Virus record (IMG/VR): IMGVR_UViG_3300037601_000088
Location: 83,253-147,252 of that record
Strand: one strand, 5' to 3'
DNA: 64,000 nt
Origin: a virus
Lineage: Duplodnaviria; Caudoviricetes
Shown: piece after piece, positions 50,841 to 54,206 of the stretch
How the letters are laid out: the number at the start of each line of letters is the position of its first letter
How positions within the stretch are numbered: position 1 is the stretch's first letter
Position numbers and translations under genes: made by a program
The notes under the pieces: generated by a model
Database searches by the model: none
What the model was told of the DNA's origin: nothing
What the model saw: only the letters and a program-made list of their open reading frames with translations

Positions 50841-51090
50841 AGATAAAGCATATTGTAGAATTTTTGAAGCATTACACGCGATGGGAATTTTTGAATCAGA
50901 ACTAAATTTTCTGTCTTCTAAAGAAGTTCCTATCTTTGAATTTAAAGATATTCCAGGCTGTGTTATTGATTTAACCGCAACACACTCTGCATATGTATTT
51001 TATGAGATTATCAATAGAATTGAAATCCATTCTTATAAAAAGGGGCAAGAAAGTCTTAGAAAAGAAATCAGAGATACGTTAAGGATATAA
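50830..51090 (+). CDS. hypothetical protein
   Basis: ORF; start uncertain. Confidence 0.45.
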   Translation: MKYKDKAYCRIFEALHAMGIFESELNFLSSKEVPIFEFKDIPGCVIDLTATHSAYVFYEIINRIEIHSYKKGQESLRKEIRDTLRI

Positions 51091-51091
51091 A

Positions 51092-51787
51092 ATGCCGTGG
51101 GAAGATCATGAAGAATTAAAGTCCAAAAGTGATAGGTCTGCTAGATACAAATTAGCTTATCCTCAGGGCTATTCCAAAAAAGAATTAGACGAAGCAATGC
51201 AAGAAATGGAAATAGGAGAAATGGAGACAAGAAAGCAAATGGATGAAATTTTATGGACAGAGCGTGCAGATATCCCAACTTCTGATCAAGTTCTTGCCTC
51301 ATTAAAATTAATTGGAGAATCAACAAATGCTGCCTCTCTTTGCAGGTTGCTTGTCCTTGTCGGGTATGAAAAGAAAAATGCTTCGTTAGCAATTCAACGA
51401 GCAATAGATGATGGAACACTTCAAATTTCAGACGGTTGGAAAATTAGTAAACCAGATTCATTTACCAAAGATTATGAAAATGAAGAAAGACCATTTCATT
51501 TATGGTTTGGTTTATCATATTGTTCGTATTTAGTTTTACCTAGATTACTGCTTGATTATATGCCTAAGAAATGGCAGGTTGAGATGATTAATCTTCTTGA
51601 TCAAATTCCTGATAATATTGCAAGTAAACAGCCGGATTATCATGTTCTTCGTGAAGGTTATTGGTTACCAGAGCATTATGATAGTGAGGATGAAAATAGT
51701 ACTGTTATGTCCTATCATACTACATGGAGAAATGATCCATGGGCTGACTATAGACACGGTAATGTCAATCAAATTATTGGAGATTAA
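51092..51787 (+). CDS. hypothetical phage protein
   Basis: C-terminal WFGLSY..YLVLPR..MP..WQ domain. Confidence 0.65.
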   Translation: MPWEDHEELKSKSDRSARYKLAYPQGYSKKELDEAMQEMEIGEMETRKQMDEILWTERADIPTSDQVLASLKLIGESTNAASLCRLLVLVGYEKKNASLAIQRAIDDGTLQISDGWKISKPDSFTKDYENEERPFHLWFGLSYCSYLVLPRLLLDYMPKKWQVEMINLLDQIPDNIASKQPDYHVLREGYWLPEHYDSEDENSTVMSYHTTWRNDPWADYRHGNVNQIIGD

Positions 51788-51813
51788 AGGATTATTAATA
51801 AATATTTCAATGT

Positions 51814-51888
51814 GAGAGTGAAGCTTTTACGGTGAAGCGGTGGTCTCCAAAACCACAGAATGGGGTTCAAGTCCTCACTCTCTTGCCA
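51814..51888 (+). tRNA. tRNA-Trp(CCA)
   Basis: GTGGT-CTCCAAA-ACCAC arm, GCTT/AAGC D stem, TGGGG-TTCAAGT-CCTCA, G73 CCA. Confidence 0.88.
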
Positions 51889-51908
51889 AAATACGAAAGA
51901 AAAATCAA

Positions 51909-52559
51909 ATGAAAAAATATCTAGTAGAAGTTAAGCCTGCAGAAGGCGGAAAAGATAGTGAACTTTTTGTTGATGATCTTATTAACGCATACCAAAAAAC
52001 ATTTGACAAATTAGGTTGAAAGTATCAAATAACTGATAACACAATAGAGGTTATTGGCGATAGATCTTTATTATCTGAAAATGGTGGGCATAGAATTCAA
52101 AGAGTTCCTCCAACAGAAACTAGAGGAAGAGTTCATACAAGCACTGTAGTTGTCTCTGTAATAGAACAGGGTAGAAAAGGAAAAACTTACGATATTGATG
52201 ATGTAACAATTGAATGGTTTTCCGGTACTGGTAAGGGTGGACAGCATAGAAATAAACACCAAAATTCCTGTAGGTTAAAACATAATTCTACAGGAATAGA
52301 AGTTTCAATTCAAGGTAGATCAAGAAAATCAAATTTAACTGAGGCAAAAAGAGTTCTTAAGGAGCGTCTTGAACAACAGTTAAATCACTCCTATCATCAG
52401 GAGATATCAGGAATCAAAAGAAATAATTTTGGTTCTGGCATGAGAGGTGATAAAACATTTACATTGCGTTTTCAAGATGATATGATTAAAAATCATCAGA
52501 ACGGTAAAACAATGAAATTATCAAAATACATGAATGGTCAAATGAATAGGATATGGTAA
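51909..52559 (+). CDS. class I peptide release factor, RF1 type, lacking domain 1, with in-frame TGA at codon 37 (not in ORF track)
   Basis: EVKPAEGGKDSELF...LG*KY...ENGGHRIQRVPPTE.RGRVHTST...GTGKGGQHRNK...H..TG...GSGMRGDK. Confidence 0.88.
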
Positions 52560-52930
52560 TGAAATATACTAAAGAAATGCAAAAAGTTAACCGTAAAAGA
52601 TGGGTTGAAGCACTTCGATCCGGTGAATATGAACAAGGTCAAAGTTTTCTAAATAAAAATAATAAATTTTGTTGCTTAGGTGTTCTTTGCGAAATTGTAG
52701 GAGTAGAGAAAGAATATATTCCTACCAATTATCTTTTTTCTTATGGAGAAGAAAAATCAATTTCTGCATGCTCCAAGGAAGTAATGGATGTTGTGGGATT
52801 AAATGATACACTTGGAATGTATAATAATTATTCCGCATCGTTAGCTAATTTAAATGATGGACTTGGTAAATCATTCGATCAAATCGCTGATATAATTGAA
52901 TCAGAGCCAGATGGGCTTTTTGCTAACTAG
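52559..52930 (+). CDS. CCLGV-family paralogue 2
   Basis: WVEALRSGEYEQ, CCLGVLCE, LND..FDQIADIIE. Confidence 0.8.
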   Translation: MKYTKEMQKVNRKRWVEALRSGEYEQGQSFLNKNNKFCCLGVLCEIVGVEKEYIPTNYLFSYGEEKSISACSKEVMDVVGLNDTLGMYNNYSASLANLNDGLGKSFDQIADIIESEPDGLFAN

Positions 52931-52945
52931 ATAGGTTTAATAATA

Positions 52946-53743
52946 ATGCATGATGATATTGGCGACAGAATGAAGTCATATGAGAGTGATACAAGGTTTC
53001 TTCCGTTTCTTCCTATAATTGTTAGGATCGATGGTAAACGCTTTAGTCGGTGGACAAAGGATCTTGCTCGACCATATGATAAACGGATGTCAGACCTAAT
53101 GGTGGAAGTGACAAAATTCCTTGTTGAGGAAACTCATGCGATAATTGGATATACACAATCTGATGAGATTACTCTTGTTTTATATTCCGATAAAATAAAT
53201 AGTCAAATTTATCTTGATCGCCGTGAACAAAAAACTGTTTCAATTCTAGCCTCATTGGCAACTGCAAAGTTTAATGGAATTAAATCATGGTTTCTTTTTG
53301 ATTATAAGGGTTATGGTCCTGCGATATTTGATGCAAGAGCATTCGCTGTTCCAACTAAAACAGAGGCGGCAAATGCTGTTCTTTGGAGAGTTCAGGACGC
53401 AAGAAGAAATGCTATTAGTATGGCTGCACGTGCACATTTTTCTCACAAAAGTCTACAAAACCTCAATGATCAAGAAATTCGGGAAAAACTATTAAAAGAT
53501 GCTGATGTTAATTTTGAGGATTATCCAGCGTTTTTCAAATCAGGAACTTTTGTTAGAAGAGTAACCAGGAAGATTTCTCCTGATAATTCAGCTTTTAATT
53601 CTATCCCCAAAAAATACAAGCCAAATTATCCAGTGAAAAGATCATCTGTCGAAGTAGTTAATGATATTCCGATATTTACCAAAGTTCTAAACAGAACTGA
53701 AGTAATTTTTGATCAAGCAATTCCAATTATAAAGGAAAATTAA
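52946..53743 (+). CDS. Thg1-like 3'-5' tRNA nucleotidyltransferase
   Basis: RMKSYE, RIDGKRF, YTQSDEIT, FDAR, WR..DA.RN. Confidence 0.92.
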   Translation: MHDDIGDRMKSYESDTRFLPFLPIIVRIDGKRFSRWTKDLARPYDKRMSDLMVEVTKFLVEETHAIIGYTQSDEITLVLYSDKINSQIYLDRREQKTVSILASLATAKFNGIKSWFLFDYKGYGPAIFDARAFAVPTKTEAANAVLWRVQDARRNAISMAARAHFSHKSLQNLNDQEIREKLLKDADVNFEDYPAFFKSGTFVRRVTRKISPDNSAFNSIPKKYKPNYPVKRSSVEVVNDIPIFTKVLNRTEVIFDQAIPIIKEN

Positions 53744-53744
53744 A

Positions 53745-54206
53745 ATGGAAGGCATTGAAGAAGTTGTCCTTAAAGCTTATAAAGCAAAGGATGGATATGA
53801 ATATCCTACAATTGAGGAAGCTAAAAAAGCTAATGACCGCTGGGAATATGAAAAGGATTTCACTGTAGATGATGTTCTAAAAGAAATAGAATACCATCGA
53901 AAAAGGGGTAATCAAACTATTTGGAATTTAACACGAAGACATGCTGGATCGTCATGGATTTTAGAACTTACTGGTAAATATGACAAATATACTGAAGTTG
54001 CAATAAATGTTCATGCAATTCCATTAGCCGCTTTTAATTTATTTGATATTGAGCAATTTGGCGAATATTATGATGATCGAACAGCTCTTTTATTCAAGAC
54101 AGTTATAGAAAAGAAAGATTGTTTAGCGGCCTTTAATATTTTATCATTGCGCTCTGATAACGAATATGAACATTTTGAATATTGGAAAACTAATATTAAT
54201 GAGTGA
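53745..54206 (+). CDS. hypothetical protein
   Basis: ORF with SD. Confidence 0.55.
   Translation: MEGIEEVVLKAYKAKDGYEYPTIEEAKKANDRWEYEKDFTVDDVLKEIEYHRKRGNQTIWNLTRRHAGSSWILELTGKYDKYTEVAINVHAIPLAAFNLFDIEQFGEYYDDRTALLFKTVIEKKDCLAAFNILSLRSDNEYEHFEYWKTNINE

Follow-up and report, generated by a model that had tools for sequence, protein, structure and literature searches.

The release-factor gene and its surroundings

The window, i.e., the whole stretch of 64,000 nucleotides analysed here, comprises the final 64 kb of a 147-kb IMG/VR record from a T4-like phage with 32% GC, estimated to be 85% complete. On its plus strand, behind a tRNA-Trp gene, it carries a frame (51909-52559) that translates into 216 residues followed by TAA and is interrupted by a single in-frame TGA at codon 37. 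An earlier note on this DNA had placed the frame, its PPT and GGQ motifs, the TGA and the tRNA-Trp gene, and translation, ARAGORN and Pfam bear out all these coordinates. The features of the locus are:

51814-51888, plus strand: tRNA-Trp(CCA), 75 nt (ARAGORN); context of this copy, not a family-wide partner
51889-51908, plus strand: A-rich leader of 20 nt between the tRNA 3' end and the ATG
51909-52016, plus strand: segment 1 of the ORF, codons 1-36; first strand and helix of release-factor domain 2, including the AEGG..D tip of helix alpha-5
52017-52019, plus strand: in-frame UGA gate, codon 37 (TTA GGT TGA AAG), at the conserved Trp position of RF1
52020-52556, plus strand: segment 2 of the ORF, codons 38-216; remainder of domain 2, domain 3 (GGQ) and domain 4
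52107-52115, plus strand: PPT, the RF1-type PxT "anticodon", inside RIQRVPPTE..GRVHTS
52236-52244, plus strand: GGQ catalytic motif
52557-52561, plus strand: TAATG, where the TAA of the factor overlaps the ATG (52559) of the next gene, a CCLGV-family protein (phrog_18067)

The first in-frame ATG, GTG or TTG after the gate in this gene is codon 178 and there is none in codons 38-177, so that the part bearing PPT and GGQ cannot start on its own. A terminator search over 51000-53900 found none, and for this reason the tRNA-Trp and the factor gene are likely co-transcribed. The gene that follows, a CCLGV-family paralogue (52553-52930, plus strand, ATG at 52559), may be translationally coupled through the TAATG to ribosomes that have passed the UGA; an AGGA 10 nt upstream of its ATG could also allow it to be initiated independently. 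The same terminator-free stretch contains, as the second gene after the factor (ca. 390 nt downstream), a gene for a Thg1-like tRNA-His guanylyltransferase, which repairs tRNA 5' ends (52946-53743, plus strand; PF04446, E 1e-30; phrog_4717).

The gated factor is the only gene with an RF-1 domain in this genome. Outside the window the same genome encodes a permuted two-piece tmRNA of the alpha type (at about G000:C1:8892-9284, plus strand; locus L262:293-685) that scores 139 bits with RF01849 and 113 bits with RF04321, and whose tag is, according to ARAGORN, ANDNVADGEIVRLAA. The ribonucleotide reductase of the phage is nearest to that of a Rhizobium T4-like phage (60% identity), and together with the alpha-type tmRNA this suggests that the host is likely an alphaproteobacterium. 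Also outside the window we found a tRNA with a CUA anticodon, i.e., an amber suppressor (G000:C1:79903-79976, minus strand; locus L261:604-677; 56 bits with the Rfam tRNA model), located 245 nt from a tRNA-Ile(GAT) in a genome that is not TAG-recoded. This tRNA is expected to compete at UAG with the RF1-type factor of the same phage.

Conservation of the in-frame UGA and its variants

In a first scan of IMG/VR we found 252 contigs with relatives, and the best 80 of these 252 (43–50% protein identity) were compared with the window copy. All 81 copies contained exactly one in-frame stop, always TGA and always at one and the same alignment position, which goes well beyond chance; this is codon 36 in 70 copies, and all except one start with ATG. 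The codon before the TGA was for Gly in 79 copies, and the TGA was followed by A in 63 copies, by C in 11 and by G in 7, but never by T. The missing T may reflect, at least partly, a preference for the amino acid of the next codon rather than the termination context. Over 34 phylogenetically independent pairs of relatives, which differed at 0.64–0.69 per synonymous site (pS), the dN/dS was 0.095 upstream and 0.104 downstream of the stop. Values of ca. 0.10 on either side indicate that both parts are translated in this frame.

The TGA site aligns with the Trp of the GW motif in the solved RF1s of T. maritima and S. mutans, and L096, the sole member of the clade of the window gene (clade A below) that lacks the TGA, has TGG there. 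Hence the recoded residue is Trp, and the earlier note had been right in taking this position for the Trp of RF1. Among the top 120 database proteins 116 have W at the site, nearly all of them on contigs of about 1 kb, although this comparison is at the level of protein only and does not distinguish TGG from TGA.

An isolated in-frame stop usually marks a pseudogene, and the gene callers behind the databases have given full-length proteins containing the W on short contigs. We have nevertheless assigned a practically negligible probability to a recent pseudogene or a sequencing error, and to the related explanations of genome-wide TGA=Trp recoding or selenocysteine. The first two are refuted by the conservation data (the stop is kept in 81 of 81 independent assemblies) and by the low dN/dS on both sides. 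As for the genetic code, the 172 ORFs of at least 100 codons in this phage end in TAA (133), TGA (22) or TAG (17), ORFs of that size in the standard code cover 90% of the genome, and the other Trp codons of the factor gene are TGG. Recoding of either TGA or TAG throughout the genome was rejected given this coding density under code 11 and the 22 ORFs ending in TGA, in agreement with the earlier claim that the genome is not recoded; pairs of same-frame ORFs separated by TAG are separate genes and not a sign of TAG recoding. There is no tRNA(UCA) in this genome, and thus no dedicated suppressor is needed. Selenocysteine insertion was also rejected, since there is no conserved hairpin at the bacterial SECIS position and both RF1 and L096 have Trp at the site.

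RNAalifold predicted no pairs in a consensus structure after the stop (46 sequences), and in the window copy a stimulatory RNA structure was no better than in shuffled sequences (z of -0.8 and -0.3). A sliding-window dip in MFE located 9–18 nt past the stop (mean z of about -1.2) and hairpins in one sub-clade (L023, L061, L063 and L075) may be local features.

With TGA in 81 of 81 copies, purifying selection on both halves and no start downstream, the in-frame TGA is a control device maintained by selection and not damage. A recoding device rather than a pseudogene is what the earlier note had put forward; it had also suggested looking for the TGA in homologues and comparing the dN/dS on the two sides of the stop, and both comparisons came out in favour of its proposal.

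Besides the first scan, we carried out a scan of prokaryotes with one genome per species (80 loci) and a second scan of IMG/VR (420 contigs, 80 kept) in which the query was an alignment led by a distant member; single-protein queries (L100 and L094) had poor recall. Among GenBank phages there was no relative with more than 35% identity. In total 195 out of 205 distinct genes were gated, and the gate types among the 205 distinct proteins were:

single TGA read-through: 104
TAG read-through: 1
two in-frame stops: 5
+1 frameshift cassette: 85
uninterrupted: 10

Frameshift forms were called from the motif and frame logic over three frames, with exact heptamer matches in 85 genes. In these relatives the N-terminal 31 or 41 codons are in one frame and the body of the protein in the +1 frame, with the junction CTT TGA C preceded by GGAGG, GGGAG or GGGG. 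An SD-like element was found at 73 of the 85 sites, ending 3 nt before the CTT in 50, and the stop codon (TGA in 73, TAG in 11 and TAA in one) was followed by C in 68. Judging by these motifs the cassette is that of prfB. In the window gene the TGA occupies the Trp position, and the usual frameshift site is the codon that immediately follows this position. A second gate site lies 10 codons further on and serves for read-through as well as for the shift. The window copy lacks the SD-like element with CUU UGA C and continues in frame through GGT TGA A. The earlier note had considered a prfB-type frameshift unnecessary, which holds for this copy but not for relatives that use that cassette beside the same position. 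These are the more distant ones, in jumbo phages and Myxococcota; carriers of the frameshift form include isolates (five Nannocystis species, Minicystis rosea, Thiobacillus denitrificans and Achromobacter anxifer) as well as many jumbo-phage contigs.

A FastTree phylogeny of 144 sequences with a midpoint root separated two clades. Clade A (85 rows, full support) includes the window gene, and over its tree length of about 26 amino-acid substitutions per site the TGA was altered only once, in L096. In this contig, binned as Hahella sp. (L096:3004-3115), the Trp codon is TGG and a CTT TAG C +1 site is found five codons further on, which looks like the substitution of one gate for another. Clade B contains the frameshift forms, where TGA and TAG have been exchanged at least four times between close sisters with an identical recognition loop. 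Huge phages from GenBank (LR7565xx) contain a single in-frame TGA or two of them in the gate region, between flanks in the standard code; L083 and L086 have two each. Double gates were also seen in six IMG/VR loci (L222, L223, L232, L243, L246 and L249, at positions ca. 1600–1650), with stops eight or thirteen codons apart that are TGA then TAG, or TGA then TGA. The ten ungated members (L101-L104, L183, L193, L194, L204, L209 and L210) have Tyr or Leu at the Trp/TGA site and are possible natural controls for the cost or benefit of the gate.

The protein, its tRNA islands and its neighbors

The factor was recognized in Pfam by PCRF (PF03462, E 1e-17), over the last 95 of the 194 profile positions only, and by RF-1 (PF00472, E 1e-12). 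Its alignment to the NCBIfam model of RF1 (prfA) spans positions 104-334 of 347, indicating that domain 1 (about 105 residues) is absent, and reaches 147 bits against a cut-off of 400. The RF2 model (TIGR00020) gave 78 bits against 370, and neither the SPF tripeptide nor the RF2-type switch loop is present. The recognition loop reads QRVPPTE..GRVHTS, in which Q64, P67, P68, T69, E70, H76 and S78 are invariant in our alignment A2, and PPT was found in 116 of 121 database relatives. All the residues by which RF1 reads stop codons are retained, namely Pro and Thr in the PxT motif and Gln plus His-Thr in the switch loop, while the middle Pro and a basic pair (RK, KR or RR) after PPTE are specific to the family with respect to RF1. 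An AF2 model built on a 46-sequence alignment had a pLDDT of 91 and, by Foldseek, a TM of 0.85–0.88 to ribosome-bound RF1. On this evidence the factor is derived from RF1, devoid of domain 1 and the equivalog of no curated family. Domain 1 is not needed for release, and a truncated RF1 is functional in vivo (PMC1586002).

The absence of domain 1 had led the earlier note to a comparison with PrfH-type rescue factors. The missing domain was confirmed, but the protein is not of the PrfH type, given that the PrfH model (TIGR03072) gave 36 bits against a cut-off of 166.65 and no RtcB-family ligase was found among the 10 window neighbors or in the commonest neighbor clusters of 80 loci. One might still think of a PrfH- or ArfB-like factor that rescues ribosomes jammed by RNA damage, encoded in an island for tRNA repair and counter-defence, with the gate keeping a risky hydrolase scarce. 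The short protein, its location in tRNA islands, the Thg1-like repair enzyme ca. 390 nt downstream and the tmRNA of the same phage all point in this direction, as do the neighbors of the gene. The commonest of these is a DSP/PTP-like phosphatase (weak matches to PF22785/PF00782; 27 of 80 loci, for example L074:1692-2297), and an AAA_33 kinase and a metallophosphatase also recur; the three together look like a set for RNA-end processing. However, the elements that read the stop codon are intact and invariant, unlike in PrfH and ArfB (the latter being a GGQ domain alone with a basic C-terminal tail, whereas here the codon-recognition superdomain 2/4 is present), and the RtcB partner is absent. 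No conserved protein partner was found in the phage clade beyond the phosphatase, and none in the cellular clade. A weak ribosome-binding site would restrict expression equally, and scarcity would leave the conserved prfB-type cassettes unexplained. We consider a rescue function quite unlikely.

There are tRNA genes within 3 kb in 59 of the 81 loci, nearly all on the strand of the gene, and none in the other 22. This is the general context of the family, and the linkage to tRNA-Trp that the earlier note had regarded as meaningful did not extend to it. A tRNA-Trp was found within 3 kb in 12 of the 81 loci, none of which has a tRNA(UCA) on the strand of the gene. When only the nearest tRNA is counted, Trp, Arg and Ser share first place, each at 5 of 34 loci. 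The tRNA-Trp lies at no more than 500 nt in six of the 12 loci that have one, compared with about a fifth for other tRNAs, a weak hint that comes from related loci. We also searched 21 contigs of 87–578 kb with a tRNA-Trp covariance model and found tRNA-Trp(CCA) in 14, a Trp-like tRNA(UCA) in one and a Trp-like tRNA(CUA) in three, while in at least two complete (100%) jumbo genomes, G005 and G013, this search gave no Trp-like tRNA as best match. The Trp-like tRNAs with CUA (L275:1501-1577, L281:1501-1575 and L286:1501-1575) and UCA (L277:1501-1577), which score 59–68 bits, look like Trp-derived amber and opal suppressors in jumbo phages that have the gated factor and flanks in the standard code.

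The tRNA-Trp of the window scores 63.9 bits (tRNA-Trp covariance model R1) and has an encoded G73-CCA end, a U-U mismatch in the acceptor stem and an A at position 8. A UGA suppressor of the Hirsh type was rejected since the 11:24 pair, read from the sequence, is C:G. The arrangement in the window, where the tRNA ends 20 nt before the ATG with no terminator after it, could suggest a timer, with the tRNA gene and the gated ORF as one functional unit and the factor made only once the phage tRNA-Trp accumulates. The place of tRNA-Trp among the nearest tRNAs, its short distance in half of the loci having it within 3 kb, and its presence in most of the large contigs, with a Trp-like tRNA(UCA) in one more, would fit. 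Against a timer, this tRNA is near the gene in a small minority of the loci and the enrichment is due to a few related ones, 22 loci have no tRNA at all, the two complete genomes have no Trp-like tRNA as best match, the window tRNA has no known UGA-reading change, and the frameshift-gated relatives need no tRNA-Trp. We regard a timer as unlikely. By these counts the tRNA-Trp of the host must suffice, and the adjacency found in the window is one arrangement among many and not a trait of the family.

Proposed control of synthesis and comparison with known systems

Among bacterial release factors UGA is read only by RF2, and in E. coli tRNA-Trp is the main natural misreader of this codon. Termination is weakened by an A or C after the UGA, and in prfB slow termination at the same kind of cassette leads to more bypass. 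We consider, with a probability of roughly 0.6, that the gene codes for an auxiliary RF1-type class-I release factor without domain 1, the synthesis of which is gated by programmed read-through of a UGA for which RF2 competes. That read-through occurs, that RF2 is the competitor, and the activity and specificity of the factor are what we infer in this scheme. Translation would start at the ATG at 51909 and, at codon 37, reach the UGA, whose context (GGU UGA A) is weak. There, termination by host RF2 would leave a product of 36 residues, whereas a near-cognate tRNA-Trp, from host or phage, would insert the Trp required by the fold to give the full 216-aa factor. Output would rise when termination at UGA is slow relative to tRNA-Trp, making the gate a sensor of stop-codon waiting time as in prfB, with read-through in place of the +1 shift. 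Such an increase in full-length factor should follow from RF2 being the sole reader of UGA, from misreading by tRNA-Trp, from the weak context and from the prfB precedent. The product would, by its recognition loop, release at UAA and UAG, which end 87% of the long ORFs of this phage, without RF3. An RF1-like loop and a dispensable domain 1 make a UAA/UAG factor independent of RF3 the simplest expectation.

That low RF2 is sensed, as the earlier note had proposed, is plausible. However, an RF1 supplement that senses RF2 would not form a closed loop because an RF1-type factor cannot relieve the delay at UGA. A strict RF2-specific sensor is also at odds with the exchanges between UGA and UAG gates, at least four with an identical loop, which fit better a reader of both codons or a generic sensor. 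The exchanges make a serious rival of true autoregulation of the prfB kind, in which the PPT factor, with broadened or omnipotent specificity, also reads UGA, terminates its own synthesis at the gate and so sets its own level. The loop closes only if the product acts on the codon that is sensed. The gate is overwhelmingly UGA, whether it is passed by read-through or belongs to an exact prfB-type cassette; UGA and UAG replace each other between sister genes that share the recognition loop, as expected if both are read; and the family departs from RF1 in the middle Pro and in the basic pair that follows PPTE. The eRF1 of Mimivirus, which reads all stops, is gated by frameshift and read-through (PMC3521657). 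On the other hand, the factor retains all the residues by which RF1 reads. Bacterial release factors that read purine-purine are described as also hitting UGG, which is toxic (PMC7530605). We find self-regulation possible but doubtful, the tripeptide rule being a further argument against it. According to this rule, reportedly from Ito et al. in 2000, Pro in the first place restricts the second base to A. Equally tentative is the idea that the short PPT factors form a third lineage of stop-reading class-I release factors, borne mainly by phages. Their production would nearly always be wired to the speed of stop-codon decoding, through read-through or a prfB-type +1 shift at UGA or UAG, and the factors would themselves read the gate codons, UGA among them. 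If that were true, the self-regulating loop would be closed and large phages could take over termination from RF1, RF2 and RF3.

Autoregulatory recoding in a release-factor gene has so far been a textbook peculiarity of bacterial RF2. The present family spans hundreds of phages and some bacteria, with an RF1-type factor gated at the same position by either read-through or the RF2 cassette, and is a natural experiment on the interconversion of read-through and frameshifting. It is probably a new class of RF3-independent termination factor, and raises the question of whether large phages sense and correct the termination capacity of the host. In practical terms, such genes are truncated or missed by gene callers. 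Our search of the full-text literature found no paper describing a family of stop-gated short PPT release factors. A review of recoding from 2016 knew of no RF2 gene with an in-frame read-through UGA, and a counterpart in RF1 genes was unknown (PMC5009743). The survey of release-factor families of 2019 lists RF1, RF2, ArfB and PrfH for bacteria and does not mention phages, frameshifts or read-through (PMC6514570).

Compared with bacterial RF1 (PrfA; TIGR00019/NF001859), the window factor shares domains 2, 3 and 4, a PxT-type loop, GGQ and the fold, but it lacks domain 1, has PPT and a basic pair after PPTE, stays far below the cut-off of the RF1 model and is encoded by a stop-gated gene. PrfH (RFH), the rescue factor linked to RtcB2, is likewise a short class-I paralogue without domain 1; however, its recognition region has diverged and an RtcB neighbor is obligatory, whereas the window factor keeps the RF1 residues and has no RtcB. 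The Jade phages also encode an RF1 beside tRNA genes and tie it to the decoding of UGA as Trp. In their case the recoding of TGA is genome-wide, with tRNA(UCA) and TrpRS, and the RF1 of the "code change module" is in standard code and contains no internal stop (Borges et al. preprint, 10.1101/2021.08.26.457843), while the window phage uses the standard code and its sole recoded TGA is inside the release-factor gene.

The closest parallel in bacteria is prfB, a class-I release-factor gene interrupted early by a UGA at which bypass competes with termination, all the more so as relatives of the window gene carry the same cassette (SD-like element, 3 nt, CUU UGA C). The window copy differs from it in the in-frame read-through without a shift, the RF1-type PPT instead of SPF, the lack of domain 1, and the location of the gate at a conserved Trp of domain 2 and not in domain 1. 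Furthermore, the factor is not expected to read its own gate codon, so that any self-regulation is putative. Among viruses, the eRF1 gene of Mimivirus and Megavirus contains one frameshift and one read-through (Jeudy et al. 2012, PMC3521657), and is similar in being a viral termination factor with internal stops that are passed and with both types of recoding in one family. Still, that protein is of the eukaryotic/archaeal type, unrelated to the window factor and encoded by giant viruses of amoebae, and it reads all three stops, so that there the gate forms a self-regulatory loop.
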